A DNA stretch of 64,000 bases from contig CAWAVL010000014.1 in NCBI GenBank assembly GCA_963785455.1, positions 145,444-209,443 on the forward strand. The letters are read 5' to 3'. This document shows, piece after piece, positions 2,293-26,783 of this stretch (within the stretch, counting starts at the first letter, position 1; each line of letters starts with the position of its first letter). The notes under the pieces were generated by a model. That model was not told the DNA's origin. It made no database searches and saw only the letters and a program-made list of their open reading frames with translations. Made by a program: the position numbers and the translations under genes. The DNA is from an uncultured Actinomycetota bacterium (GTDB lineage: Bacteria > Actinomycetota > Actinomycetes > Mycobacteriales > Nakamurellaceae).

Positions 2293-5073
2293 GTGATGGT
2301 CGGGCGTACGGATGCCTGCCGGCGCGTGCAGACGCTGGTCGAGGGGGTCCGCGCCGGGGTCGGCGGCGCTCTGGTTGTCACCGGGCCTGCGGGCATCGGC
2401 AAGACCACCCTGCTGGAATTCGCGGCGGAACAGGCGCAGGACCTCTTGCTCCTGCGCACGACCGGCTCCCCCGCCGAGCACGGGATGCCCTACGCGGGCC
2501 TTTCCCAGTTGCTGGGCCCGATACTGTGCCACCTACCCGCGTTGCCACCGGTGCAGCAGGCGGCCGTCAGGTCCGCGCTCGGCCTCGACCCGCCGGTCGG
2601 CACGGACGTATTCGGTGTCTATGTCGGCACGTTGGCCCTGCTCGCCGCGGCGGCGGTCGAACGGCCGGTGGTCGTCCTGATCGATGACGGTCAATGGTGT
2701 GACAGCGCCTCCATCGAAGCCGTGTTGTTCGCCCGGCGCAGGCTGGCTCACGACCCGGTGGGTTTCGTCCTGGCCACTCGCGTCGATCCGCACGGCACAC
2801 CGCCGTGGCCGGGGCTCCCGGCGCTGGAGATCACCGGATTGACGCCGGACGCGGCACGTTCCCTCCTGGATCACCACGGGATGGCCCTGACCGACGACGT
2901 CCTCGACTGGTTGGTCCGCTCGACGGGCGGCAACCCGCTGGCCCTGCTCGACGTGCCGACCTACCTGCCCCCGGCGGAACTGGCATTGCAGGCCCTGCGC
3001 GGGCAAGAGGCGCCCGTGGGTCCCGCGCTGACCGCCGCCTACGGGCATGTGATGGCCACGATGTCACCCGACCAACGCCAGGCGCTGGTCATCGCCGCGA
3101 TGCTCGACCACGCCGACATCGCAATCCTGATCACCGCTTTGGCATCTGCGGACCTGCGACCAGCACTGCTCGAGGACGCCGAGGACGCGGGCATGGTCCG
3201 GCTGTCGACGGCCGCCGTGCAGATGCGTCATCCCCTGACGAGGTCTGCCGTCATCGCATCCTGTCCGCCGAGCGCACGCCGTGCCGCCCATCGGGCGTGT
3301 GCAGAAGGTCTGCGGCGGTCATCGCGTCCGGCAGACGCGGAGGCGCGGGTGTGGCATCTCGCGGACGCTGCGCTCGGCCCCGACGAAGCGATCGCTGTCC
3401 AACTCGAGGATCTGGCGACCATCGCCACCGGCCGAACGGGCTACGCGGCAGCATGTCTCACCAGTCAGCGGGCCGCAGAACTGAGCGACCCGGGTGAGGG
3501 CAGGACACGCCGGCTCATCGCCGCCGCAGCCGCGGGACTGGCCGCCGGTCTGCCCGAGCAGAGCCAGGCACTGCTCGCTGCTCTCGGGCACGAACTCGGC
3601 GCCACCCGCCGGCAACAACTGCAGATCGCGCATCTGCGGGGCCGACTCCGGGCGGCCGCCGGTGACCCACCGGGTGCGGCCCGCGATCTGCACGAGCAGG
3701 CCCGGGTCAGCCGGCGCACCGACCCGGACCTGGCCGTGCAACTCGCGGTGGACAGCGCCTTCGCCGCTGTCCTGGCCGGTGAGATGGAATTGGCAGCCGG
3801 TGCGGGCGATCTGATCGCGTCGATCGACGGCGATGCGTCGACGGACGCACTGGCCGACCTCATCGTCGGCACCGCGATGGCAATGGGCGGGGCCGGCAAC
3901 GACGCCCTGCCCGTCCTCGACCGATGCCGTTCGGTCTTCGACATTCCCGACCCACCAACGCAACTGCTGCAGCAGGTCATCTATCTGGGTACGGCCTACA
4001 GCCTGATCAATCGCTTCGACCTGGCGATCCCCCTGCTGGACAGGGGCATCGGCATCGGACGCAGACGCGGTGCCCTCGGGGTACTGCCGTTTGCGCTGGC
4101 GATGTCGGCGACCACCGCGTACCGCACCGGTGACTGGGATGCCGGCTACGCGCAGGCATGCGAGGCGGCGGCGCTGGCCCAGGACACCGGGCAGACGCAC
4201 ATCCGACCCAACGCGACCGTGATGATCGCCCAGATCGACGCTGCACGCGGACTCGAACGGGCCCGTGCGGACGCCGGCGCGGTCATCCGGGAATCGTCGG
4301 CCATGGGAGCCACCTTCATCCGGGCCCAGGGCCTGAGCATGCTCGGACTGCTCGAACTCGGCCGCGGTGACCCCGCGTCCGCGATCGCACCGCTGCAGGA
4401 ATGTGGTCGGTTGTCCCGGCAGTTCGGCCTGTTCGAACTCGGCCATTTGCAGTGGGCGGCAGAACTCATCGAGGCGCAGCTGCGCTGCGGCATCTCCGAT
4501 GACATCCCCGAAACACTCGAGATCATGCGCGGGGCAGCGCATCCCGGTTCCACCTCGCTGAACCGGGCGCTCCTGTTGCGATGCGAGGCAATGGTGGCCA
4601 CCGACCCTTCGTGGGAGAACAGTTTCGCGGAAGCGCTCGTGCTGCACCGCGGGGCGAACGTCCGACCGTTCGAGTTGGCGCGCACCCAACTGTGTTTCGG
4701 CGAGCGATTGCGTCGACAACGCCGTCGGAGGGATGCCAGGGAGTACCTGTCCCAGGCATGGGAGACCTTTACGGCGCTGGGCGCAGGTACATGGGCGAAT
4801 CGGGCCGGCCAGGAAATCGCCGCCCTGGGCGGCCACACCCCGCGCCCGGTGTCCCACGTGACGGATCTGCTGACGCCGCAGGAACTCCAGGTGGCGGTGA
4901 TCGTGGCCGGTGGGGCGACCAACCGGGAGGCGGCGGGCGCGCTGTTCCTCAGTCAGAAGACCGTGGAATTCCACCTCAGCAACATCTATCGGCGGCTGGG
5001 CCTCCGCACTCGGGCGGAACTCATTCACACCATCAAGGACAGGGCGGGGCCGCCCACACCGCCTGCAAGCTGA
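2293..5073 (+). CDS. large ATP-binding LuxR-family (LAL) transcriptional regulator
   Basis: N-terminal Walker A GPAGIGKTTLL, Walker B LIDDGQW, helical middle region, C-terminal LuxR HTH LTPQELQVA...TNREAAGALFLSQKTVEFHLSNIYRRLG. Confidence 0.93.
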   Translation: MMVGRTDACRRVQTLVEGVRAGVGGALVVTGPAGIGKTTLLEFAAEQAQDLLLLRTTGSPAEHGMPYAGLSQLLGPILCHLPALPPVQQAAVRSALGLDPPVGTDVFGVYVGTLALLAAAAVERPVVVLIDDGQWCDSASIEAVLFARRRLAHDPVGFVLATRVDPHGTPPWPGLPALEITGLTPDAARSLLDHHGMALTDDVLDWLVRSTGGNPLALLDVPTYLPPAELALQALRGQEAPVGPALTAAYGHVMATMSPDQRQALVIAAMLDHADIAILITALASADLRPALLEDAEDAGMVRLSTAAVQMRHPLTRSAVIASCPPSARRAAHRACAEGLRRSSRPADAEARVWHLADAALGPDEAIAVQLEDLATIATGRTGYAAACLTSQRAAELSDPGEGRTRRLIAAAAAGLAAGLPEQSQALLAALGHELGATRRQQLQIAHLRGRLRAAAGDPPGAARDLHEQARVSRRTDPDLAVQLAVDSAFAAVLAGEMELAAGAGDLIASIDGDASTDALADLIVGTAMAMGGAGNDALPVLDRCRSVFDIPDPPTQLLQQVIYLGTAYSLINRFDLAIPLLDRGIGIGRRRGALGVLPFALAMSATTAYRTGDWDAGYAQACEAAALAQDTGQTHIRPNATVMIAQIDAARGLERARADAGAVIRESSAMGATFIRAQGLSMLGLLELGRGDPASAIAPLQECGRLSRQFGLFELGHLQWAAELIEAQLRCGISDDIPETLEIMRGAAHPGSTSLNRALLLRCEAMVATDPSWENSFAEALVLHRGANVRPFELARTQLCFGERLRRQRRRRDAREYLSQAWETFTALGAGTWANRAGQEIAALGGHTPRPVSHVTDLLTPQELQVAVIVAGGATNREAAGALFLSQKTVEFHLSNIYRRLGLRTRAELIHTIKDRAGPPTPPAS

Positions 5074-5231: not shown

Positions 5232-5909
5232 TCAGGTGGCCGCCAGTGCCCGGCCGGCCCCGGTGGGGCCGGCGTGCGCCAACGCGTCGACGAGCACACT
5301 GCAGGCAATCCCGAGGCGGGTCCCCAGATATCGGCCCGGCACCTGTCGCCGGTTGTTGCCTGTCTCGAACGATTCCCCACCGTAGAAGAGTGGAACCCCC
5401 AGCGCGTCGACCGCGTTCAGCGACCCGACGGCGGACCGGTGCCCCCGGCCGTCGGCTGACATCACCACGACGGCAACCGCGGCGGTCGCCTGCACGGCGA
5501 TCGTCAATGCGAACGTCGAGATCCGGGCTCCCAACAGCCGGGCCGGCATGCCTTCCTCCTGGAGGAGGAGCGCCAGACTCTCGACACCCACCAGATCCGT
5601 GTCCCGTGGCCCGCAACTCAACAGAACAGGATTGGCCCGTACCGGCGGAGGCCCGAAGGTTCGTCGGTTGCTCAACCAGGCGCGGATCGCCTCCGTGGCC
5701 AGAACCTCTTGACCCGCGTCCAGCCGACCCGCGACGCCCAGTCGCCGCAGTTCGCGCCGCGCGGGTCCGACGACCTCATCGACGCACCGGGCCAACCCGA
5801 GTTCGGCCGCGGCGCAGTCCAACTCCGCCGCCACGGGTCCCGGATCCCGATCGTGTGCCGCCCGCAGGACACGGCGAACGCGTTCCTGCTGTACGGACCT
5901 GGCCACCAC
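5232..5909 (-). CDS. stand-alone B12-binding-domain protein (CarH-like C-terminal half, no HTH, degenerate cobalamin ligands)
   Basis: Clear paralog of residues after the HTH in 6673..7602 (QEVLATEAIRAWL vs QEHMATEAVRAWL; VPGRYLG shared); GAAAGGG RBS before GTG 5909. Confidence 0.8.
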   Translation of the reverse strand: MVARSVQQERVRRVLRAAHDRDPGPVAAELDCAAAELGLARCVDEVVGPARRELRRLGVAGRLDAGQEVLATEAIRAWLSNRRTFGPPPVRANPVLLSCGPRDTDLVGVESLALLLQEEGMPARLLGARISTFALTIAVQATAAVAVVVMSADGRGHRSAVGSLNAVDALGVPLFYGGESFETGNNRRQVPGRYLGTRLGIACSVLVDALAHAGPTGAGRALAAT

Positions 5910-6066
5910 TTCGCCCTTTCGACGGAACGACCACTGACACCGCACTCTGCCCGGCGGACGTGTCGATCAGTATCTCTTATGGGGAGCCCGGCGCCGTTCG
6001 GCATTCGAATTGCATAGTTGTGACGATCTGGCGAGGGTCGCGGCCCGGCAGTGGCCGACGAGCGGC

Positions 6067-6360
6067 TCAGGCCCTCCGCGTCGCCGTCCTCCTCAGCACC
6101 CTGGGATCGGGAACGGCGGTGGCGAGAACGGCATCGCACGGGTGCAGGTGCGTGATGCCGAACTGATCCACCAGAACGATCTGCCCGTCCCGGCGATGCA
6201 CACCGGTCACGACGTGCGGCCTTTCGTCAGGTCGCGGGAACCACCAATCGCCCGGGCTCAGGTGGCCGATGTGGTGCCGGGTCCGGGTGAACCCCACACC
6301 CGGTGGCCGTCCGTCCAGATGGTCGAGCACGTCTGCCGCATTGCGCAGGTTCAGGCACAT
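6067..6360 (-). CDS. hypothetical protein (97 aa)
   Basis: AAGGAG RBS 6 nt before ATG 6360; MCLNLRNAADVLDHLDGRPPG...LSPGDWWF; co-oriented between the two B12-domain genes. Confidence 0.65.
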   Translation of the reverse strand: MCLNLRNAADVLDHLDGRPPGVGFTRTRHHIGHLSPGDWWFPRPDERPHVVTGVHRRDGQIVLVDQFGITHLHPCDAVLATAVPDPRVLRRTATRRA

Positions 6361-6672
6361 CTCGGGCTCCTTCGGCCGGTGAGCTGAGTAGTCCGTGCGG
6401 TGCACGTGCTCTCAGGAGTGGCCGCGCGGCGCGTTCCGGACATCACGCGACGATCGAACCGATGCACCGTTCCTGTGGTGACCCGTGTCCGCGCGGCGGG
6501 GGATGGCGCGGACACGGGTGGCTCTGGTGGGCCCGCCGAGATCACGGCGAGGGCTGCGGGGGGACAGCCCGGCGAACCTCGACTCACACGGACCAGAATG
6601 GCCCCTGGCGATGGCTCCCGTGGCCATCCGGACGGTTTGCATAGTTTCGATGTCGAACCGCTACCCGGTCAC

Positions 6673-7602
6673 TCAAGTCGCGGCGGCAGGAGCGCCACCG
6701 GGATCCTCGTCGTCGAGCACCTGGGTGAGTGTCGCGCAGGCGACCTCGATTCCGACGCCGAGGTAACGACCTGGAACCCCCCGACGGCTCCGCGGGGTGG
6801 TGAATGCGTTGCCGGCGTAGAACACCGGAACACCCAGTTCGTCGACCGCGCGGATCGATTCGATGGCCCGGTGCCGGCCGGTTGCCAGATGCGAGACCAG
6901 GACAACAGCTGCCACCGGGGTCGCCCGAGCGGCTGCAGCGATCGTCATGGTCGACGTCCTGGCGCCCAGCACGCGACACCCCCAACCTCCGTACCGCAGC
7001 AGCAGCGCCGTCGATTCCAGGCCGATGGTGTGCAGGTCGCCCGGCCCGCAAGCCAACAGGATCGGCCGGGGCCGGGTGGGTGCCGGAGCGAACGCACTGC
7101 GGCGATCGAGCCAGGCGCGGACCGCCTCGGTCGCCATGTGTTCTTGCACGACATCACAATGGCCGATCGCCCACCACACGCCGATCTGGCGCATCGCGGG
7201 CAGCAGCACCTCGTCGATGGTGGACGCCAGGCCGAGCTGTCCCACCGACTCATCGAGCCCAGCACGGACGGACCCGGGATCGAGCCGCTCCGCAGCTGCC
7301 AGGATCCGGTGGATCGACTCCTGCGCGGGACCTTGACTGCCGAGCATGCTGCGGACCGACTGTGCGGCCGCTGCCGCCTTCTGACCGCGGGCGATTTCGT
7401 CCCGCATCAGCCGAAGCGCAGTGATCTCCTCGGGCAGGTAGCGGCGATGTTGACCGGGTCCGCGGCTGAGCGACGGGATTCCGTAGCGCAACTCCCAGGA
7501 TCGGAGCGTCGGCATCGGCACCCCGAGGAGTTGTGCGACGGCATTGATCGGTACTCCCCGCCGATCCCCGACCGCAATGTCCCGGTTGGTCGATGTCGCC
7601 AC
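6673..7602 (-). CDS. MerR-family regulator with B12-binding domain (CarH/LitR-like)
   Basis: MerR HTH (INAVAQLLGVPMPTLRSWELRYG...GQHRRY), W-x9-EH motif (WAIGHCDVVQEH) and D-x-H-x-x-G (GDLHTIG); GAGG RBS before GTG 7602. Confidence 0.88.
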   Translation of the reverse strand: MATSTNRDIAVGDRRGVPINAVAQLLGVPMPTLRSWELRYGIPSLSRGPGQHRRYLPEEITALRLMRDEIARGQKAAAAAQSVRSMLGSQGPAQESIHRILAAAERLDPGSVRAGLDESVGQLGLASTIDEVLLPAMRQIGVWWAIGHCDVVQEHMATEAVRAWLDRRSAFAPAPTRPRPILLACGPGDLHTIGLESTALLLRYGGWGCRVLGARTSTMTIAAAARATPVAAVVLVSHLATGRHRAIESIRAVDELGVPVFYAGNAFTTPRSRRGVPGRYLGVGIEVACATLTQVLDDEDPGGAPAAAT

Positions 7603-8060
7603 GCGAGCCTCACCCTCGCCCCGGATCGTTGGCCGCGGCTGCGGCGCCCGAGCCGGTTCACTACGACCAGAGAATATGCCCATCCGGCGTGTTCACGTCG
7701 ACAAGCACCTCATTGTGGCGCAGGAACCTCGGCGTGAACGGCGGGTCGAAACGAACGAACCGCATGCCGCCCCCGCGTGCGGCCCGGCGGCGGTGACAGC
7801 CTTCAGTGCCGGACATCGGTCCACTACGCCTTCGAGGCTGCAATCAAGTGTTCGCCTCGAGGGTCGGCCTCTTCTCGATCGACACTGTTTACGGGCCGAG
7901 CGAAAACCCGCTGTTCCTCAACTTCCCCGGCGATGTTCGCAGTCAGCGGGCCCGTCGGGCCGCTGGGCCGGTCTGCCATGCGTCAAACGGTTGCGCAGAT
8001 CGTCGCGGCGCCTCGGTGAGTCAACCTCGATTCCAGGCGCCGAGTGGTGGTCTCTCCGGC

Positions 8061-8807
8061 TCAGGCAGCATGTCGTCCGGTGGGCCGCAACCAGGGCCCG
8101 GTACGGGTGGAGCCACCTTCCTCCACGGAGGTCTTGTTGTCGGTGTGCATTCGGGCGGGCGACGACGCTGCGACCGTGCCGGTGGGCAGAGTCTGGGCGC
8201 TCCCCGGCTGAGGGTGACGGCGGTATTGCCGATCGACGAGGTAGAGCAGGACGAGACCGATGACCACCATGGTGTGGCTGCTCAGCCGATCGAGCCCAAC
8301 GTTCGCCGAGAGGACGTCGATGGTTGACACCGCGACCAGCACTGCGACGAACACCGCCAGTGCGGGCAGCAGACCGCGGGCGAACGAGGGCCGCACAGCG
8401 GCGGCGAGCAGCCCGATCGCGACACCCATGTTCCAGGCGGTGCTCTCGTTGAAGAAGTGCTCGGCTGTTCCGGCGGCCGGGTGTGCGGTGTGGTCGACAC
8501 CGAGCAGCTGCGCCAGGGCCAGGATGAGTTGCGCGAAGGCAACGACGCCCAAGGCCCACCTGAGGGCGTGACGCCGCCCACGCGGCGCCTGCGCCGGGAC
8601 CGCGGCCAGGATTCGGTCGGTCAGGTCGGGCGTCGCGACGGCGGGGCGGACCCGGAGACCACGCGTGATCACACCGGCGCAGCTCTGCCACCGCTGACAG
8701 CCCCGGCAGTGGGCAAGGTGCGCATCCACGAGAGCCGGCGGCACCGGTTCTTCTTCGCCGTCCATCCTGGCCGAAAGAGCGTCTCGGCAGTCTGTGCACT
8801 TCACCAC
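8061..8807 (-). CDS. membrane zf-HC2 anti-sigma factor (mycobacterial Rv0093c-like)
   Basis: C-x2-C...LSARMDGE...H-x3-C-x2-C zinc finger (HLAHCRGC), four TM segments, EHFFNESTAWN motif. Confidence 0.85.
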   Translation of the reverse strand: MVKCTDCRDALSARMDGEEEPVPPALVDAHLAHCRGCQRWQSCAGVITRGLRVRPAVATPDLTDRILAAVPAQAPRGRRHALRWALGVVAFAQLILALAQLLGVDHTAHPAAGTAEHFFNESTAWNMGVAIGLLAAAVRPSFARGLLPALAVFVAVLVAVSTIDVLSANVGLDRLSSHTMVVIGLVLLYLVDRQYRRHPQPGSAQTLPTGTVAASSPARMHTDNKTSVEEGGSTRTGPWLRPTGRHAA

Positions 8808-8812
8808 GAGAT

Positions 8813-8839
8813 TGTCGTGCCCGGTCCGGACGAAGTTCC
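8813..8839 (-). promoter_or_regulatory. putative SigC-type ECF promoter of the anti-sigma gene (GGAAC-N17-CGACA)
   Basis: Minus strand GGAAC ttcgtccggaccgggca CGACA, ending 5 nt before GTG 8807 (leaderless geometry); mirrors the site at 9514..9540. Confidence 0.6.
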
Positions 8840-8917
8840 GCCCGCCCACCGTCGACTCTGTGGGCACCCCGCAATGTGGGGTCACTTGGGCGCTGCCGTC
8901 GAACTAGGGTCTTCTAC

Positions 8918-9502
8918 ATGCCGTCGAATTTGGGGTGGGAAGCCGCTGGACGTCTCGCCGAGGCCGCCGCAGCCGGCGATCAGCAGGCCGTTGCCGGCCT
9001 GATCCGGGCGACGCAGCGAGACGTCTGGCGGTTCGTGGCCTCCCAGGCCGGCACGACCGACGCGGACGATCTGACCCAGGAAACGTACCTGCGGGCCATC
9101 ACGGCGTTGCCCCGCTTCGAGGGCAGGTCCAGCATCCGAACCTGGCTGCTGGTGATCGCCCGACGGGTCGTTGTCGACCATCACCGGCATCGAGCGGCCC
9201 GACCCCGAATCGCTGATATCGCGGAGTGGGACGGCCCCGCCGAACGCGCACTCCACAGCCGGGCCCGGGACTCGCCGGGGTTCGAGGAAATCTCCGAGAT
9301 CGGTCTGCTGCTCGACTCACTGGCCCCTGATCGTCGCGAAGCCCTGGTCCTCACCCAACTGTTGGGTTTGTCATACGCCGAGGCCGCGCAGATCTGCGAG
9401 TGCCCGGTCGGCACGATCCGCTCCAGGGTTGCCCGTGCCCGTGACGACCTGGTCGGCTTGGCCGGTGAAACCGAGCAGCCCGGACGATCCGTCACCGGTT
9501 GA
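8918..9502 (+). CDS. ECF RNA polymerase sigma factor, SigC-like
   Basis: Region 2 DADDLTQETYLRA...FEGRSSIRTWLLVIARR and region 4 LSYAEAAQICECPVGTIRSRVARAR; closely resembles actinobacterial SigC. Confidence 0.9.
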   Translation: MPSNLGWEAAGRLAEAAAAGDQQAVAGLIRATQRDVWRFVASQAGTTDADDLTQETYLRAITALPRFEGRSSIRTWLLVIARRVVVDHHRHRAARPRIADIAEWDGPAERALHSRARDSPGFEEISEIGLLLDSLAPDRREALVLTQLLGLSYAEAAQICECPVGTIRSRVARARDDLVGLAGETEQPGRSVTG

Positions 9503-9513
9503 TCGGGCGGGCC

Positions 9514-9540
9514 GGAACTTTTCACTCCTGACGGCCGACT
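9514..9540 (+). promoter_or_regulatory. putative SigC-type ECF promoter of the PCuAC-DyP-CopC operon (GGAAC-N17-CGACT)
   Basis: GGAAC at 9514-9518, 17-nt spacer, CGACT at 9536-9540; matches the recalled mycobacterial SigC consensus. Confidence 0.65.
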
Positions 9541-9622
9541 CACTGTGGGTGCCGGGCAACGTGCCTCCGGCTGCTGCGCCCGACCTCACCGGTCGGGCCG
9601 AACAAGTCAACGGGAGTTTTCG

Positions 9623-19972: not shown

Positions 19973-20918
19973 CCGGCGCGCCGGGCACCTCCCCGACGAC
20001 CAGCAGGCCGCCGCTGGTCTGGGCATCGGCCAGCAACAGCAGCTCCAGTTCGTCGACCGCCGATTGCAGGTGCGGGCGCACCCAGTCCAGGTTCCGCCGG
20101 GTACCGCCGCTGATGTAGCCGGCCGATGCCGACGCCCGCGCACCGTCCAGGTACGGCACGGCCGCCGCATCGACCACGGCGCTGATTCCGGAGGCCCGCA
20201 TCATCTTGTACAGGTGCCCGAGCAGACCGAAGCCGGTGACGTCGGTGGCCGCCGTGACGCCCGCGGAAACCGCTGCCGCACTCGCGGTGTCGTTCAGCTG
20301 CACCATGGTGGCCACGGCCTGCGGGAACACCTCACCGGTGGATTTGTGCCGGTTGTTCAACACGCCGACGCCGAGCGGCTTGGTCAGGCTGATCGGCAGG
20401 CCGGGCACGGCATCGTCGTTGCGCAGCAACCGGTCGGGATGACCGAAGCCGGTGACGGCCATGCCGTACTTCGGTTCCGGGTCGTCGATGCTGTGCCCGC
20501 CGCCGACGACGCAGCCTGCCTGCCGGGCCACATCCAGGCCGCCGCGCAGTACCTCGCGCAGCAGTTCGGTGGGCAGCAGCTCTCGCGGCCACCCGACCAA
20601 GTTGACCGCAACCGCCGGCCGGCCACCCATCGCGTACACGTCGGAGAGCGCGTTGGCGGCGGCGATCCGTCCCCAGTCGTAGGCGTCGTCGACGACCGGG
20701 GTGAAGAAGTCGGCCGTGCTGATGATGGCCAGGCCGTTCGCAATGCGGACCACCGCGGCGTCGTCGCCGTTCTCCAGGCCGACCAGCACATCGGGCGACG
20801 TGGGTCCGGCCAACCCGCTGACGATGGCCTCCAACTCGCCCGGCGGGATCTTGCAGGCACAGCCACCGCCGTGCGCGAACTGCGTCAGGCGATACGGCAC
20901 ATCGGTGAGCGCGGTCAT
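19923..20918 (-). CDS. selD: selenide, water dikinase (Cys-type)
   Basis: RLTQFAHGGGCACK, DDAA, TADFFTPVVDD, ANALSDVYAMGG, GGHS, TDVTGFGLLGH, DAQTSGGLL. Confidence 0.96.
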   Translation of the reverse strand: MTALTDVPYRLTQFAHGGGCACKIPPGELEAIVSGLAGPTSPDVLVGLENGDDAAVVRIANGLAIISTADFFTPVVDDAYDWGRIAAANALSDVYAMGGRPAVAVNLVGWPRELLPTELLREVLRGGLDVARQAGCVVGGGHSIDDPEPKYGMAVTGFGHPDRLLRNDDAVPGLPISLTKPLGVGVLNNRHKSTGEVFPQAVATMVQLNDTASAAAVSAGVTAATDVTGFGLLGHLYKMMRASGISAVVDAAAVPYLDGARASASAGYISGGTRRNLDWVRPHLQSAVDELELLLLADAQTSGGLLVVGEVPGAPVIGETVARRSAVVQVR

Positions 20919-20985
20919 GGCGAGAGGGTAGCCACGAGAATCGGACCGCAAACAATCCCCCCGGGACCAACGTACAGCGCACCGG

Positions 20986-21004
20986 GGGGCTTGCGGCAAG
21001 ACCC
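20986..21004. promoter_or_regulatory. rifamycin-associated element (RAE), 19-bp inverted repeat
   Basis: GGGGCTTGC-G-GCAAGACCC (one mismatch between arms) 23 nt upstream of rph; matches the 19-bp RAE palindrome as recalled from actinobacterial rifamycin-resistance genes. Confidence 0.85.
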
Positions 21005-21027
21005 CTGCGGCGCAGCACAATGCCCGC

Positions 21028-23616
21028 GTGCTGGTGGATCTGGGACAGGTGGGCCGAGCGCAGGTTCCGCTGGTCGGCGGAAAGGCCGCCCATCTCGGCG
21101 AGCTGCGAAGGATGGGCGCCCGGGTTCCGCCCGGGTTCTGCGTGACGACGGCGGCGTTCCGGGAAACCGTGGCGGCCGAGCCCGCCGTCGTCGACGGCCT
21201 GACGGAATTGGCACGGCTGCGCGCGGACGACCACGAGGACGTCCGGTCGGTGAGCGGCGCCCTGCGTGCCACCGTGGCCGACATTCCGGTGCCCGAGGAG
21301 CTCGTGACGGCGATCGCAGGCGCGCTGGGCAGGATCGGTGCGGACGCCCCGTACGCCGTCCGTTCCAGCGCCACCGTCGAGGACTCCGCGACCGCCTCGT
21401 TCGCGGGTCAGCAGGACTCGTTCCTCGACGTGGTCGGGCTGTCCGCCGTGCTGCGGCACATCAGCCTCTGCTGGGCATCGCTGTTCACCGAGCGAGCCGT
21501 GGTCTACCGGATGCGCAACGGCATCGACCACGACACCATCCGGATGGCCGTGGTGGTGCAGCGGATGGTCGAGCCCGACGCGGCGGGCGTGCTGTTCACC
21601 GCCGATCCGGTCTCGTCGAATCGCAGGGTCGCCACCGTGGAGGCCGTTCCGGGCCTGGGCGGGGCGTTGGTGTCGGGCGTGACCAACCCGGATGTCGTCA
21701 AGATCCGCGACGGCAGCATCGCTTCCCGGACGGTGATCGGCGAACGGCCCGTGCTCTCCGATGATCAGGCACTCCGGCTGGCGCGGCTGGGCCGGGCGAT
21801 CGAGGCACACTTCGGAACCCCACAGGACATCGAATGGTGCCTGCGCGGCAACGACTTCCACATCGTGCAGAGCCGGCCGATCAGCACGCTGTTCCCGATC
21901 CCATCCGTCGAGGACGATTCCCCGCACGTCTACATCTCGGTCGGGCACCAGCAGATGATGACCGACGCCATTGCGCCGTTGGGTCTGTCGATCTGGCAGC
22001 TCACCGCGATCGCCCGGATGCAGCACGCCGGGGGCCGGCCGTTCGTCGACGTCGCGGGGCCGCTGGCATCGCCCGCCGGGCGCGCCCGGTTACTGGACAT
22101 CGCCTTTCGTTCCGACCCGCTGGTCAGGGACGCACTCGAGACCGTGCTGGACAGTGGCTTCCTTCCGACCCGGCAGGATCCGGTGGAGAATGCCGCACTG
22201 ACCGGTCCCCCGGTGCAGATCGACAACGATCACGGGATCGTCACCGCCCTGATCGAGCAGAGCCGCGCGTCGATCCAGCAGCTGCGGCAGTCGATCACCA
22301 CCCGCTCCGGTGCTGCCCTTTTCGACTATCTGCCGCAGGCGTTCGAGGAACACCAGCGGATGCTGAGTGATCCGCAGAGCATGCGGGCGATCCTGGCGGG
22401 GATGGACGCCAACTGGTGGCTCACCGACCATCTGCGGGCCTGGCTCGGTGACCCGGACGCCGCGGATGTGCTGATCCGTTCGGTACCGGGCAATGTCACC
22501 TCGGAAATGGGACTCGCGCTGCTCGACGTCGCCGACGTGATCCGCCGTCACCCGGCGGTCGTCGGGTTTCTGCAGACAGCCGACGACCACTTCCTCGACG
22601 GGCTCCACCGCATCGACGGGGGCCGCGAGGCAGCGCACGCCATCCACGGCTTCCTCGATCGCTACGGCATGCGCTGTGTCGGCGAGATCGACATCACCAG
22701 ATCCCGGTGGAGCGAGCAGCCGGGCAGCCTGCTGCCCCTCCTGCTGAGCAACGTCGCACATTTCCGGCCCGGCGAGGCGAAGCGTCGATTCGAACGCGGC
22801 CTTGCGCAGGCCAGGGCGAAGGAAACCGAAGTGCTGCAACGCCTTCGCGCACTGCCCGGCGGCCAGGAGAAGGCCGCCGAAACAGCATGGATGATCGACC
22901 GGGTCCGCATCTTCGTCGGGTACCGCGAGTACCCGAAATACGCGCTGATCACCCGCTATTTCTTGTACAAACAGGCGCTGATGCGCGAGGCGGCTGACCT
23001 GGCGGCGGCCGGATTGATCACCTCCCCGGAGGACGTCTTCTTCCTCACCCTTGACGAGTTCGCTGCCGCGGTGCGCAGCGGTCGAGTGGATACGGAGCTG
23101 ATCGACCGGCGCAGGCAGGAGTTCGCCGTCTTCCGGACGCTGCGCCCGCCGAGGGTGCTGACCTCGGACGGCGAGGTGTTCATGGGGGGCTACCGACGCT
23201 CCGACCCACCCGCGGGAGCGCTCGTCGGCCTGCCGGTGTCCGCCGGCGTCGTCGAGGGGCGAGCCCGCGTCATCACGGACATCGCGCGGGCGAACGTCGA
23301 GCCGGGGGACATCCTCGTCACCACCTCCACCGATCCGAGTTGGTCACCGCTGTTCGTGGCCGTCGCGGCACTGGTGACCGAGGTCGGCGGGCAGATGACC
23401 CATGGTGCGGTCATCGCCCGGGAGTACGGTTTGCCGGCCGTTGTCGGCGTCGACAGTGCCACCGCGCTGATCCGGGACGGCAGGCGGATCCGCGTCGACG
23501 GCACCGCGGGCTACGTGCAGGTCCTTCCCGATGCCGAGCCGGCCGTCGTCTCGGCTACCGTGTCCGGCGGAGGCGTACAGGCGCCTGGTGGCCCTCCCGG
23601 TCTTCAAAACCGGTGA
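21028..23616 (+). CDS. rph: rifamycin-inactivating phosphotransferase
   Basis: ATP-grasp N-terminus (GGKAAHLGEL, AVRSSATVED..ASFAGQQDS), central RIF-binding region with HQQMMTD and GYREYPKY, C-terminal swivel His domain (GGQMTHGAVIAREYGLPAVVGV); upstream RAE. Confidence 0.92.
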   Translation: MLVDLGQVGRAQVPLVGGKAAHLGELRRMGARVPPGFCVTTAAFRETVAAEPAVVDGLTELARLRADDHEDVRSVSGALRATVADIPVPEELVTAIAGALGRIGADAPYAVRSSATVEDSATASFAGQQDSFLDVVGLSAVLRHISLCWASLFTERAVVYRMRNGIDHDTIRMAVVVQRMVEPDAAGVLFTADPVSSNRRVATVEAVPGLGGALVSGVTNPDVVKIRDGSIASRTVIGERPVLSDDQALRLARLGRAIEAHFGTPQDIEWCLRGNDFHIVQSRPISTLFPIPSVEDDSPHVYISVGHQQMMTDAIAPLGLSIWQLTAIARMQHAGGRPFVDVAGPLASPAGRARLLDIAFRSDPLVRDALETVLDSGFLPTRQDPVENAALTGPPVQIDNDHGIVTALIEQSRASIQQLRQSITTRSGAALFDYLPQAFEEHQRMLSDPQSMRAILAGMDANWWLTDHLRAWLGDPDAADVLIRSVPGNVTSEMGLALLDVADVIRRHPAVVGFLQTADDHFLDGLHRIDGGREAAHAIHGFLDRYGMRCVGEIDITRSRWSEQPGSLLPLLLSNVAHFRPGEAKRRFERGLAQARAKETEVLQRLRALPGGQEKAAETAWMIDRVRIFVGYREYPKYALITRYFLYKQALMREAADLAAAGLITSPEDVFFLTLDEFAAAVRSGRVDTELIDRRRQEFAVFRTLRPPRVLTSDGEVFMGGYRRSDPPAGALVGLPVSAGVVEGRARVITDIARANVEPGDILVTTSTDPSWSPLFVAVAALVTEVGGQMTHGAVIAREYGLPAVVGVDSATALIRDGRRIRVDGTAGYVQVLPDAEPAVVSATVSGGGVQAPGGPPGLQNR
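23556..23561 (+). promoter_or_regulatory. putative -10 element of selC inside the rph coding sequence
   Basis: TACCGT (TAnnnT) 7 nt before the first base of tRNA-Sec. Confidence 0.45.
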
Positions 23617-23664
23617 AGTCGAGCATCTCGGCTTGGCGGGTTCGATTCCCGTCCGCCTCCGCCA
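23569..23664 (+). tRNA. selC: tRNA-Sec (anticodon UCA)
   Basis: GGAGGCG/CGCCTCC acceptor, CCGGT-CTTCAAA-ACCGG anticodon arm with TCA at 23604-23606, long variable arm, GGTTCGATTCC T-loop, G discriminator plus encoded CCA; 96 nt. Confidence 0.96.
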
Positions 23665-23693
23665 CCTGTCGCACCGGGTGGTAAAACGGCCGG

Positions 23694-24986
23694 GTGACGG
23701 TTGACCCGCGGCGGCTGGTGCCCCGCACGGACACCGTGCTCGCCGACCCCCGACTGGTGGCCGCGGCGCAGCGGCTGGGGTCCGGCACCGTCCGCACCGC
23801 AGTCCGGGACGCCCAGCAGCTCGCCAGGGAAGGCAGCATTGCCCCCGAGGACGTTGCCGATGCCGCAGTGCGCTCACTGCCGGAATCGGGCACCGGCCTC
23901 ACGGCGGTGCTGAATGCGACAGGCGTTGTGCTGCACACCAACCTGGGTCGGGCGCCGCTGTCCCCGGCGGCCACGGACGCCATGACGACGGCCGCCGGCT
24001 ACGTCGACGTGGAATTCGACCTGGGCTCCGGTCGCCGCGCGGCCCGCGGGTCGCGGGCACTGCAGGCACTGCGGGCGGCGGTGCCCGATGCGGAGGCCGT
24101 CCTGCTGGTCACCAACGGCGCGGCCGCACTGGTGCTGGCCACCACCGCCCTCGCCGCCGGCCGCGAGGTGCTGATCAGCCGCGGCGAGATGGTGGAGATC
24201 GGCGCCGGCTTCCGGTTGGCGGATCTCATCACCGCCACCGGCGTCCGCATCCGCGAGGTCGGTTCGACCAACCGGACGACGCTGCGCGACTACGAGCAGG
24301 CCATCGGCGCGGACACCGCGGCCCTGGTCAAGATCCATCCCAGCAACTTCCGGCTCACCGGTTTCACCTCATCGGTGCCGGTGACCGACCTGGCGCGGCT
24401 ACCGGTACCCGTGATCGCCGATGTGGGAAGCGGCCTGCTGCAGCCCGATCCGTTGCTGCCGGAGGAGCCGGACGTCCGGTCGGCGCTGCGGGCGGGCGCA
24501 GCCGTCGTCACCTGCAGCGGCGACAAGCTTCTCGGCGGCCCGCAGGCCGGGCTGGTGCTGGGCACCGCGGGTGCCGTCGAGACCATGCGCACCCATCCGC
24601 TGGCGCGCGCGTTCCGGCTGGACAAGATCGGCCTTGCCGCGTTCGAGGCCACCCTGCGCGGACCGGCAGCGCCCGCGCACCGCTACCTGCACGCCGACCC
24701 GGACCTGCTCCGCCGGCGGTGCGAGAACATCGCCCGCGAAACGGGTCTCACCGTGGTGCCGAGCGACGGCGCGGTCGGCGGCGGTGCCGCTCCCGGACTG
24801 CCCCTGCCGGGTTGGGCGATCGCCGTGCCGGTGGCACTTGCCCGGCCGCTGCGGCTGGGTCGCCCAGCGGTGGTCGGCCGGGTGGAGCGCGACCGGTTGC
24901 TGCTCGACCTGCGGTGCGTGCCCGAGGAGGCGGACCCGTTGCTGCGCAAGGCCCTTGCCGCGGCACTGGATGCGCGGGGCGGCTGA
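23694..24986 (+). CDS. selA: L-seryl-tRNA(Sec) selenium transferase
   Basis: VLNATGVVLHTNLGRAPL, ISRGEMVEIG..FR, REVGSTNRT, SGDKLLGGPQAG (PLP Lys). Confidence 0.96.
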   Translation: MTVDPRRLVPRTDTVLADPRLVAAAQRLGSGTVRTAVRDAQQLAREGSIAPEDVADAAVRSLPESGTGLTAVLNATGVVLHTNLGRAPLSPAATDAMTTAAGYVDVEFDLGSGRRAARGSRALQALRAAVPDAEAVLLVTNGAAALVLATTALAAGREVLISRGEMVEIGAGFRLADLITATGVRIREVGSTNRTTLRDYEQAIGADTAALVKIHPSNFRLTGFTSSVPVTDLARLPVPVIADVGSGLLQPDPLLPEEPDVRSALRAGAAVVTCSGDKLLGGPQAGLVLGTAGAVETMRTHPLARAFRLDKIGLAAFEATLRGPAAPAHRYLHADPDLLRRRCENIARETGLTVVPSDGAVGGGAAPGLPLPGWAIAVPVALARPLRLGRPAVVGRVERDRLLLDLRCVPEEADPLLRKALAAALDARGG

Positions 24987-24992
24987 CCGCAA

Positions 24993-26783
24993 ATGGATGT
25001 GCTGGCCACCGCCGGGCACGTCGATCACGGAAAGTCCACCCTGGTCCGCGCGCTGACGAGCATGGAACCCGATCGTTGGGCGGAGGAACGCCGCCGCGGC
25101 ATGACGATCGACCTCGGTTTCGCCTGGACCACCCTGCCGTCCGGCCGGACGCTGGCCTTCGTCGACGTCCCGGGGCACCAGCGGTTCATCGGCAACATGC
25201 TCGCCGGGCTGGGACCGGCCCCGGCCGTGATGATGGTCGTCGCAGCCGACGAGGGATGGCGCGAGCAGAGCACCGAACACCTTGCCGCGGCGGATGCGCT
25301 CGGCATCTCGCACGGCCTGCTGGTGATCACCCGCGCCGACCTCGCCGACCCCGCCGCCGCGCTGGCGCAATCACGAGAACGCCTGCACGGCACGAGCTTG
25401 CACGGCGCCGACGCGGTCGCGGTCTCCGGCACGACGGGAATGGGCCTGGACGCTCTCCGCTCGGCACTGGACAGGCTGGTGGCAACCGTCCCGTCGCCGG
25501 GGACGACGAGCCGGTTGCGGTTGTGGGTGGACCGGTCGTTCTCCGTCCGCGGGTCCGGCACGGTGGTGACCGGCACCCTGGAAGCCGGAACGCTGAACAC
25601 CGGCGAGGATCTCGAGGTGGCCGGGCATCGGGTCGGCGTGCGCGGGCTGCACAGCCTCGGCCGGCCGGAGACCAGGGTCGACGCGGTGGCCCGGGTGGCG
25701 GTGAACCTGCGCGGTCTGCCCCGCGAGGCGGTCGGCCGCGGTGACGCCCTGCTCACCCCGGGCAGCTGGCGTCCGGTCAGCGTCCTGGATGTCCGGACCG
25801 CCCGCACGGACGACAACTTCGCTGACCTGCCAACGGAAGTCGTGCTCTACGTCGGCACGGCGGCGGTCCCCGTGCGGGTCCGGCCGTTGGGCACGGGATC
25901 GGCCCGCCTGACGCTGAGCAGGCCTCTTCCGCTGCAGACGGACGACCGCGCCATCCTGTCCGACCGCAACCGGCACCACCTGCCCCGCGGCGTGGTGGTG
26001 CTCGACGCCGACCCGATACCGCTGCGCCGACGGGGCGCCGCCGCGGCCCGGGCCGCGGAACTCGCCGGCCTGACCGGGACACCCACTGTCGCCGACCACG
26101 TCCGCTGGCGCGGCGCGGTGCGGACGGCCGACCTCGCCGCCTGGGGGGTGACCGGGGAACCTTCCGCGGGCACCGCACGGGTCCGGGAATGGCTGATCGA
26201 CCACGATCACTGGCAGCGGTGCGGGGCCGCGCTGACCACCGCAGTCCGAGCGCGCGTCGCGGCGCACCCGCACGACCCGTACCTGGCCGTCGAGGCCGCG
26301 GTGACCGCGGCCGGCGTTCCGGACGCCACCCTGATCGGCCCGCTCGCGCGGGCCCAACGGCTCACCGTCACCGGCCGCGGCATCGGCATGCCCGGCCGGG
26401 GCGCGTCCCTCGGACCTGCCGAGGCCGCCGTCCGCGAGCTGGAAATGGCATTGCAGGCAACGCCTTTTCTGGCCCCCGACCGCGCAGAACTGGACCGGCT
26501 GCGGCTCGGCAACCGCGAGTTGGCCACCGCCGCCGCGCTGGGCCGGGTGCTGCGGCTGCAATCGGACGTCGTCGTCCTGCCCGACGCCCCGGCCAGGGCG
26601 ATGCGCGTCCTGTCCGCGCTCGAGCAGCCATTCACCACCAGCCAGGCGCGGCAGGCGCTGAGCACTACCCGGCGGGTCGTCATCCCGCTGCTCGAGCACC
26701 TCGACGGACGCGGCTGGACCGAGCGGCTGGACACCGACCACCGGCGCGTCGTTCAGTCGACGTCGACGAAGAGCGCGCGATGA
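24993..26783 (+). CDS. selB: selenocysteine-specific elongation factor
   Basis: ATAGHVDHGKSTL, EERRRGMTIDLGF, DVPGHQRF, LWVDRSF..RG.GTVVTGTL; C-terminal winged helix (TTRRVVIPLLEHLD). Confidence 0.96.
   Translation: MDVLATAGHVDHGKSTLVRALTSMEPDRWAEERRRGMTIDLGFAWTTLPSGRTLAFVDVPGHQRFIGNMLAGLGPAPAVMMVVAADEGWREQSTEHLAAADALGISHGLLVITRADLADPAAALAQSRERLHGTSLHGADAVAVSGTTGMGLDALRSALDRLVATVPSPGTTSRLRLWVDRSFSVRGSGTVVTGTLEAGTLNTGEDLEVAGHRVGVRGLHSLGRPETRVDAVARVAVNLRGLPREAVGRGDALLTPGSWRPVSVLDVRTARTDDNFADLPTEVVLYVGTAAVPVRVRPLGTGSARLTLSRPLPLQTDDRAILSDRNRHHLPRGVVVLDADPIPLRRRGAAAARAAELAGLTGTPTVADHVRWRGAVRTADLAAWGVTGEPSAGTARVREWLIDHDHWQRCGAALTTAVRARVAAHPHDPYLAVEAAVTAAGVPDATLIGPLARAQRLTVTGRGIGMPGRGASLGPAEAAVRELEMALQATPFLAPDRAELDRLRLGNRELATAAALGRVLRLQSDVVVLPDAPARAMRVLSALEQPFTTSQARQALSTTRRVVIPLLEHLDGRGWTERLDTDHRRVVQSTSTKSAR

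Follow-up and report, generated by a model that had tools for sequence, protein, structure and literature searches.

A CarH-like sensor paralog without DNA-binding domain or cobalamin ligands, conserved beside a CarH/LitR-like regulator in Nakamurella-lineage bacteria

CarH and the other class I LitR proteins, known from Thermus thermophilus, Myxococcus xanthus, Bacillus megaterium and Streptomyces, are light-sensing repressors that depend on adenosyl-B12 (AdoB12). A stretch of 64,000 nucleotides (nt) from an uncultured bacterium of the Nakamurellaceae (contig CAWAVL010000014.1, positions 145,444 to 209,443), here called the window, encodes a regulator that resembles these proteins. Downstream of it lie a small orphan gene and a paralog of the regulator which has neither a DNA-binding domain nor the residues that hold the cofactor. 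This raises the question of what such a paralog does beside a full-length relative. The window comes from a soil metagenome and has a GC content of about 69%; its nearest relatives are Nakamurella and metagenome-assembled genomes labelled 'Mycobacteriales bacterium'.

We placed the helix-turn-helix (HTH) and the sensor of the regulator, the small protein and the paralog on 42 genome and 36 metagenome loci, which are designated below by L numbers. We found that the paralog is conserved, coupled to its full-length partner and under selection, and that it shares an upstream motif with the small gene. For these reasons we favor the view that a class-I-like CarH/LitR regulator has here a conserved accessory circuit, in which the paralog may feed back on the regulator through mixed oligomers. 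We put the probability of this at roughly 0.4.

The regulator and its ligand-less paralog

Within this family the Wx9EH motif of the four-helix bundle contacts the adenosyl group of AdoB12, and a DxHxxG-type motif carries the lower-axial His for B12. The regulator gene of the window (6673..7602, minus strand) encodes 309 amino acids and begins with a GTG codon behind GGTGAGG. The open reading frame (ORF) is extendable upstream to 7683, and the start position is kept in relatives (as ATG in L006). The protein is laid out as a MerR-type winged HTH, a four-helix bundle with GxxW and EH, and a Rossmann module. Pfam detected MerR_1 (E=2e-7), MerR (E=1e-6), B12-binding_2 and B12-binding, the last at 29.9 bits, slightly below its cut-off of 32.1. 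The match to T. thermophilus CarH (TtCarH; 5c8d/3whp) had an E-value of about 2e-21 and spanned both the DNA-binding and the sensor domains. The NCBIfam CarH model scored 101 bits and so did not reach its equivalog cut-off of 400.

The individual motifs gave a similar picture. The bundle carries WAIGHCDVVQEH, in which Wx9EH is present as W144-x9-E154-H155, and the Rossmann module carries GDLH191TIG, a D/ExHxxG motif whose His, H191, is invariant across all 37 aligned full-length relatives. The recognition helix of CarH has the motif RxWERRY (PMC9304148), and the regulator has the similar RSWELRY (in LRSWELRYG). A light signature consisting of GxxW, EH, GxxH and GxxxP has been published (PMC11796333). 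Of these the regulator has the first three, but it has GARTS in place of GxxxP; the Pro is found in 7 of 16 partnered orthologues. Thus, judged by its sequence, the regulator passes most tests for a class I LitR/CarH protein but not the full light signature or the equivalog cut-off. An earlier note on this DNA had described a regulator with a MerR HTH, Wx9EH and DxHxxG, and the Pfam domains, the match to TtCarH and the signature table bear this out.

The paralog gene (5232..5909, minus strand; 225 amino acids) also starts with GTG and has GAAAGGG upstream. In a BLASTP comparison it aligned with the regulator without gaps (100/211 identities, 47%, E=2e-56) over residues 121-331 of the 336-residue regulator ORF, which is the sensor part alone. 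Pfam returned no match for the paralog. It has no HTH, and a hidden Markov model (HMM) of regulator N-termini found no relic of one upstream in any frame. N-terminally extended ORF calls had hinted at a relic of the DNA-binding domain before the paralog; we rejected this, since the three-frame HMM search found nothing before the first sensor helix. An N-terminal HTH is present in all five LitR classes (PMC9758184). At the ligand site of the paralog the Trp is Gly, EH is EV, the ligand His is Asp and the Gly of GxxW is Arg, so that the cofactor contacts of the regulator are lacking. The alignment over the whole sensor region, the absence of the HTH and the ligand replacements were all as the note had listed them, and its statement that frame and ribosome-binding site (RBS) are intact agrees with the GTG start, the upstream GAAAGGG and a coding-type GC pattern. 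All three ORFs of the locus look coding, with GC contents of about 0.73-0.77, 0.50-0.56 and 0.77-0.81 at the first, second and third codon positions.

The loss of the ligands is a property of a family. Among 5.8 billion proteins searched there were about 50 clusters of HTH-less homologues with 44-63% identity, distributed over Nakamurella-lineage genomes and soil metagenomes. Substitutions for the Trp, Glu-His and ligand His run through the whole family; Trp and Glu positions are under no constraint, and the ligand position varies freely (D, E, N or Q; H in 2 of 17 aligned paralogs). When 16 paralogs were compared with 36 full-length relatives by site class, 44 scaffold positions were identical between the two groups, and the surface motifs ATEA[IV]RxWL, CGPxD, LGAR and PGRYLG were unchanged. 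The positions conserved to at least 90% in the full-length proteins and to less than 50% in the paralogs were Q139, W144, E154, H191, T192 and A231. Gly141 of GxxW has become a conserved Arg, and R12, R41, R102, F133 and T136 are new conserved residues specific to the paralogs. Judged from these site classes, constraint on the paralog is lost almost exclusively at known cofactor-contact residues. Most paralogs, though not the copies of the window and L001, open with the peptide MSEAAPSVGGGA, which is absent from the regulator. Its coding DNA is near-identical across loci (L003, L010, L013, L014, L016, L025), and the linker that follows is hypervariable in length and sequence.

Pairwise Nei-Gojobori (NG86) dN/dS was 0.27-0.46 for the paralog, 0.13-0.25 for its partner and 0.19-0.41 for the small gene; these values, computed at dS of 0.4-0.8 (from 0.14 for the small gene), are rough because dS is large and third-position GC is biased, and the pairwise method does not separate relaxation from positive selection. 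The highest paralog value, 0.46, came from the window against L001. This indicates that the paralog is under purifying selection that is relaxed relative to its partner. The paralog ORF is intact in about 30 diverged loci (45-78% identity, 31 invariant columns). Copies that look frameshifted occur in L042 and L044; since the full-length gene is also frameshifted elsewhere, in L014 and L020, these look like assembly errors. The note had named neutral evolution and a strain-specific, decaying duplicate as the findings that would overturn it. We found neither: the gene does not evolve neutrally, and it belongs to a monophyletic, conserved family coupled to its partner.

An AlphaFold2 model of the paralog (pLDDT 89.8, pTM 0.86) has a four-helix bundle followed by a Rossmann module. 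The top Foldseek matches of this model were cobalamin-binding domains of TtCarH (E of about 1e-9, TM 0.73-0.84), so that the paralog is predicted to keep the fold of the CarH cobalamin-binding domain. In a neighbor-joining tree the ligand-less paralogs form a single long-branched clade whose branching mirrors that of the partner clade, with the window and L001, and L013 and L016, as sisters in both. The duplication is therefore old, and both genes have been inherited together; by this tree the HTH-less copy arose by an old tandem duplication.

A second type of HTH-less copy adjoins a full-length regulator in L007-L009, from JGI (Joint Genome Institute) metagenomes. These copies keep the Trp of GxWW and the Glu, and those of cluster P0050 also the His. 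They nest among the full-length proteins, with 54% identity to their own partner versus 43% to the main paralog clade, which points to an independent, younger truncation. With a second, independent origin, truncated partners appear to have been selected repeatedly.

The module, its operator-like motif, the small protein and the leader hairpin

A full-length partner is adjacent to the paralog, upstream and on the same strand, in about 30 of the 31 loci with enough flank. Among these only L010 has a paralog without an upstream partner, and its small gene is a relic. Within the module the small gene can be absent or change place. The order regulator-small gene-paralog is found in the window, L001, L006, L012, L017, L019, L056, L063, L078 and L080, and the order regulator-paralog-small gene in L018, L072, L075 and L081. 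Regulator and paralog stand without the small gene in L003, L013, L014, L016, L020, L021, L025, L055, L079, L084 and L087; regulator and small gene stand without the paralog in L054, L057, L066, L073 and L082; and the regulator is alone in distant relatives (Nocardioides, Aeromicrobium, Ornithinimicrobium, Propionibacteriales). The note had proposed a three-gene module. Co-occurrence upholds this for the pair of regulator and paralog but not for a fixed set of three, since the small gene alone, the paralog alone, both, and both in either order are all found beside the regulator.

We found a candidate control element in front of both downstream genes. The motif AAACTATGCAA (6637..6647, minus strand) lies 26 nt past the stop codon of the regulator, and a second exact match, CAACTATGCAA (6010..6020, minus strand), lies about 100 nt upstream of the paralog start. 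These are the only two matches in the 64-kb window, even with 2 mismatches allowed. Nearly every related locus has the motif at the equivalent site and in the same orientation, ahead of the small gene, the paralog or both; it was found upstream of the paralog in L001, L003, L006, L010, L013, L014, L016, L017, L018, L025 and others. Across 409 kb of oriented related genome loci there were 32 sense versus 5 antisense matches, and the sense matches fell upstream of the small gene, the paralog or a singleton regulator. Upstream of the regulator itself the motif occurs in singletons from other orders (L031, L033, L037, L040, L047) and in L007.

The CarH half-site is an 11-bp direct repeat, nnnnTnnACAn, searched as N4-T-N2-RCR (PMC9304148), and AAACTATGCAA fits the form N4-T-N2-RCR-N, with T-N2-GCA. 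An operator of CarH consists of such repeats in tandem and overlaps the promoter. In an anchored alignment of 34 sites a -10-like element starts 45 nt (about 44-46 in the family) past the ACTATGCAA core, a distance of about four 11-bp units. Its family consensus is GGGCAGTCT, and the window has CATTCT (6595..6600) and GATACT (5969-5974), both on the minus strand; we infer from this alignment that the element is a -10 region. Scans for consensus sigma-70 promoters and for intrinsic terminators gave no matches. From its sequence and placement we also infer that the motif is the operator of the regulator, with the small gene and the paralog as local targets. Because the same CarH-half-site-like motif precedes each of them, these two genes are probably the local outputs, and to that extent the statement of the note that the output is unknown no longer holds.

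Antisense copies of ACTATGCAA lie about 300-850 nt upstream of the singleton regulators of L026, L034 and L035. They have CACAGTCT 17 nt on, a -35/-10-like spacing, and they point to small ORFs; in L034 an ANTAR-domain gene sits between motif and regulator. We considered whether these copies lead to output genes and rejected this, as the downstream ORFs have no Pfam domains.

The small gene (6067..6360, minus strand; 97 amino acids) has an ATG start and the RBS GAAGGAG. Its orthologues all open with MCL(T/S/N)LRNA, which confirms the start. We found 70 clusters of homologues with 54-76% identity and about 90-120 residues, none with a Pfam domain, and a profile search of 1.84 billion representatives returned 71 matches at E<=1e-3, marking a narrow orphan family. 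The blocks GYTRTRHHIGHLxPGDWWFP and TAVPD are invariant. An AlphaFold2 model (pLDDT 75.7) is a five-stranded barrel, and Foldseek returned weak matches to SH3-like barrels (eIF5A N-domain, ribosomal L2, Tudor; E of about 0.1, TM 0.3-0.44). Among PDB chains there was no sequence similarity, and a viral fold library returned uncharacterised barrels alone. The protein is basic, with an isoelectric point of 10.1 in the window and a family median of 8.85. One might speculate from the model that this basic small barrel binds RNA or another protein. In L069 two copies of the small gene are on one contig (3245-3848 and 6329-6592), one of them with motif and hairpin. The 3 kb upstream contain no regulator, and the surroundings include a distant LuxR-type gene. 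Therefore the small-gene cassette can exist apart from the regulator.

The leader of the small gene contains a hairpin (6481..6519, minus strand) 125-137 nt past motif 1, formed by ACCCGUGUCCGCGC and GCGCGGACACGGGU as a 14-bp stem around a C-rich loop. The hairpin is present in the window, L001, L006, L012-L014, L016-L019, L021, L022, L025, L028 and L052-L087. Across 14 loci the stem is unchanged save for U-A to U-G in 4, and loops differ in both length and sequence. Such a wobble change beside a variable loop is more readily explained by a sense-strand RNA hairpin than by a DNA palindrome bound by protein. Wherever the hairpin was found on metagenome contigs (36 in all), module genes or the operator-like motif were on the contig too. 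The unit of motif and hairpin is kept without the small ORF in L013, L014, L016, L021, L025, L055, L079, L084 and L087. Since it outlasts the ORF, a role of its own is possible, and by sequence the hairpin may be a stand-alone leader or small RNA. The whole leader folds modestly better than shuffled sequences (z = -2.2). A known RNA family was sought in Rfam for leader and hairpin and rejected, with no match at E<=1 locally or at the gathering score over the whole window.

Known systems and neighboring genes

We compared the module with known systems in which a CarH-type regulator or domain has a partner. With CarH and class I LitR the regulator shares the MerR-type HTH with an RxWExRY helix, the W...E(H) bundle and the DxHxxG Rossmann module, and the motif before the putative targets fits the 11-bp half-site of CarH. 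In contrast, it is not beside carotenoid or photolyase genes and is paired with a ligand-less copy and a small barrel, and its clade mostly has ER or EQ for EH and GxxxS for GxxxP. AerR/PpaA proteins of purple bacteria are stand-alone CarH-like cobalamin-binding domains that act by binding the transcription factor CrtJ/PpsR, and AerR binds cobalamin through histidines. The paralog has the same architecture of a cobalamin-binding domain alone; however, it lacks His ligands and neighbors its own full-length relative, not CrtJ/PpsR. Genes for CrtJ/PpsR-type domains were not called beside the module in any of the loci whose neighbors were listed.

CarA of M. xanthus is the neighboring paralogue of a CarH-type repressor, lacks the Trp of Wx9EH and is B12-independent; it acts as a repressor in its own right and has retained its DNA-binding domain, EH and the classic B12-binding motif (PMC9304148). 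The paralog resembles CarA in the loss of the Trp and in its position beside a CarH-type gene, but it has also lost the DNA-binding domain and both histidines, that of EH and the ligand. CarS of Myxococcus is an SH3-like antirepressor, highly acidic, that acts as a DNA mimic and sequesters the recognition helix of CarA and CarH; it has about 90-110 residues and five strands, is encoded in a CarH-type light circuit and is made on induction (PMC2926617). The 97-residue protein is likewise predicted to be a five-stranded SH3/Tudor-like barrel and lies behind an operator-like motif. However, its family is basic to neutral, and CarS was not among its fold matches. We therefore rejected a CarS-like acidic DNA mimic, the protein being basic, with a weak SH3-like fold and no sequence match in the PDB. 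In Pseudomonas the activity of a B12-blind class II LitR is set by an adjacent short-LOV photoreceptor (PMC9758184). There too a CarH/LitR-family regulator has a small partner encoded alongside, but the arrangement here is the reverse: the regulator keeps its B12 ligands and the partner is predicted to be blind. In full-text searches of the literature, subscription-only papers excepted, we found no description of a CarH paralog without both DNA-binding domain and ligands, nor of the small protein, the motif or the hairpin.

Genes flanking the module are not conserved, except in the closest relative, L001, which shares a convergent LuxR/AAA_16 gene and upstream DUF808, trypsin and molybdopterin genes. 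The LuxR/AAA_16 gene (2293-5073) was rejected as a part of the module because it is common to this closest relative alone. Among the ORFs tested in the rest of the 64-kb window there were no carotenoid, photolyase or cobalamin genes, which for carotenoid and photolyase genes agrees with the earlier note, and Rfam at its gathering score found no B12 riboswitch across the window. The remaining tested ORFs have core functions: selenocysteine machinery with tRNA-Sec, a formate-dehydrogenase-like enzyme, ribosomal proteins, ffh/ftsY, glnD/glnE/amt, dnaE and his genes. The selenocysteine cluster (14368-26783) comprises a molybdopterin oxidoreductase with Fe4S4, ferredoxin and NrfD subunits (14368-19972), a SelD-like AIRS protein (19923-21374, minus strand), tRNA-Sec (23569-23664), SelA (23694-24986) and SelB (24993-26783).

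A copper island of about 4.3 kb (8061-12355), absent from the syntenic L001, lies between DUF808 and a remnant of a SOUL gene. It consists of a zf-HC2 anti-sigma factor (8061-8885, minus strand), an extracytoplasmic function (ECF) sigma factor (8876-9502, plus strand), a PCuAC copper chaperone (9545-10348), a Dyp-type peroxidase (10341-11621) and a CopC-domain protein (11618-12355). The sigma/anti-sigma pair (8061-9502) was considered as a LitS-like partner and rejected, because it is absent from L001 and part of the island; the copper island is not part of the CarH module. The SOUL (heme-binding) remnant (7661-7843, minus strand) is the last 34 or so codons of the gene, 74% identical to the C-terminus of the L001 protein. 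The gene is intact in L001 (195 amino acids), and the copy in the window appears truncated at the edge of the island.

A possible feedback circuit and its alternatives

The circuit that we favor would work as follows. In its repressing state (dark and B12-bound, if it is CarH-like) the regulator would silence both accessory genes, that of the small protein and the paralog, through the motif. Upon derepression the cofactor-blind paralog would accumulate and engage the sensor domain of the regulator through the scaffold and oligomerization surfaces that it retains (ATEA[IV]RxWL, CGPxD, LGAR, PGRYLG). The mixed oligomers, short of DNA-binding domains and lacking a light/B12 switch, would repress poorly. 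They could in this way tune, delay or antagonize the re-assembly of the repressor and produce feedback or hysteresis. The basic SH3-like protein would serve as another output, deployable on its own and directed at protein or RNA. Like the note, which proposed a light- or B12-blind pseudo-receptor that could hetero-oligomerize with the repressor and tune or antagonize it, this reading supposes hetero-oligomerization, antagonism of the repressor and an inability to bind any corrinoid.

A more detailed version makes the paralog a decoy subunit: a blind sensor copy under the control of the repressor would co-assemble with it after induction and render the response hysteretic or adaptive, and the basic SH3-like protein with its leader hairpin would be the second output. 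Here the hairpin may be the RNA target of the small protein itself or a stand-alone small RNA. We regard this version as unlikely.

Several observations weigh against the feedback circuit. The EH of the regulator is replaced by ER or EQ in 15 of 16 partnered orthologues (it is retained in 14 of 21 singleton relatives), so the intact Wx9EH of the window is an exception; together with GxxxS this means that sensing of AdoB12 and light by the clade is not assured. Regulator and small gene occur without the paralog at many loci of the same clade, and from L054, L057, L066, L073 and L082 it follows that the paralog is dispensable for regulator function. Most paralogs have Arg at the position matching Gly192 of the TtCarH tetramer interface, and mixed tetramers may therefore form unlike homotetramers. 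The dN/dS of the paralog exceeds that of its partner, which argues that relaxation contributes and not new function alone. Only a single 11-bp unit is conserved and subsequent units are not, against the usual 3-4 repeats of a CarH operator; a promoter element or a site for another factor would be other readings of the motif. Finally, when expression evidence was sought in sequencing runs, the sequence was present in DNA metagenome runs only.

The alternative that survives best is that the paralog is a member of the regulon with an unrelated new function, its old pocket binding another ligand or partner, so that adjacency reflects co-regulation. The paralog-specific conserved Arg residues (R12, R41, R55, R102) fall in the former cofactor-contacting bundle and loop, a promoter region of its own precedes the paralog, many loci have regulators and no paralog, and most paralogs carry the N-terminal MSEAAPSVGGGA that the regulator lacks. 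However, 44 scaffold positions, including the clade-specific surface motifs, are still identical to the partner, and the paralog co-diverges with that partner and is found without it in L010 only, among loci with enough upstream flank. We regard a new function as rather unlikely, though well worth keeping in mind.

It is also possible that AAACTATGCAA is not an operator but an element of an alternative-sigma promoter or the site of an unlinked factor, and that the three genes are mere co-inherited neighbors. That a single repeat unit is conserved would suit this, as would the 44-nt gap to the -10-like element, which is unlike a -35 spacing, and the placement of the motif 17 nt from CAGTCT, as a -35 would be, in L026, L034 and L035. 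Yet the motif tracks the regulator subfamily across orders, including the singletons L031, L033, L037, L040 and L047, fits the CarH half-site and is absent elsewhere in the 64-kb window. We consider it unlikely that the motif is not the operator of the regulator.

A third view is that the paralog binds a corrinoid non-canonically (hydroxocobalamin (OHCbl), a base-on form or another ligand) and serves as a B12 buffer, carrier or second sensor. There is a report of OHCbl binding, with no binding of adenosylcobalamin (AdoCbl) or methylcobalamin (MeCbl), by a cobalamin domain that has Arg for the ligand His (PMC11796333). The fold is fully retained, and 2 of 17 paralogs and the L007-type copies keep the His or the Trp. 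But the ligand (D, E, N, Q, H), Trp and Glu positions are unconstrained in the paralog family and most paralogs escape the Pfam B12 models, and we consider such binding improbable. That the paralog is a decaying, non-functional duplicate, as its dN/dS above that of the partner (to 0.46) and the frameshifted-looking copies in L042 and L044 might suggest, we rejected as having next to no likelihood, given an ORF intact in about 30 diverged loci, dN/dS well below 1, a confident fold model and a loss that is site-specific.

Two further conserved parts of the module stand out, the narrow orphan SH3-like protein and the invariant RNA hairpin. The clade itself is an actinobacterial branch of CarH apparently not tied to carotenoid genes, and the putative operator AAACTATGCAA can define its regulon. 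The paralog family amounts to a natural experiment in which the residues of cofactor chemistry were lost and those of fold and assembly kept. If feedback through mixed oligomers is correct, the CarH family gains a dominant-negative or decoy subunit under the control of the receptor itself. If the second HTH-less origin in L007 also holds, truncated sensor paralogs would be a recurrent way of tuning regulators that depend on oligomerization. B12-based light sensing has its model in the CarH-type proteins, which also find wide use in optogenetics and light-responsive materials, and a blind partner of this kind would be directly usable for tuning CarH-based switches.

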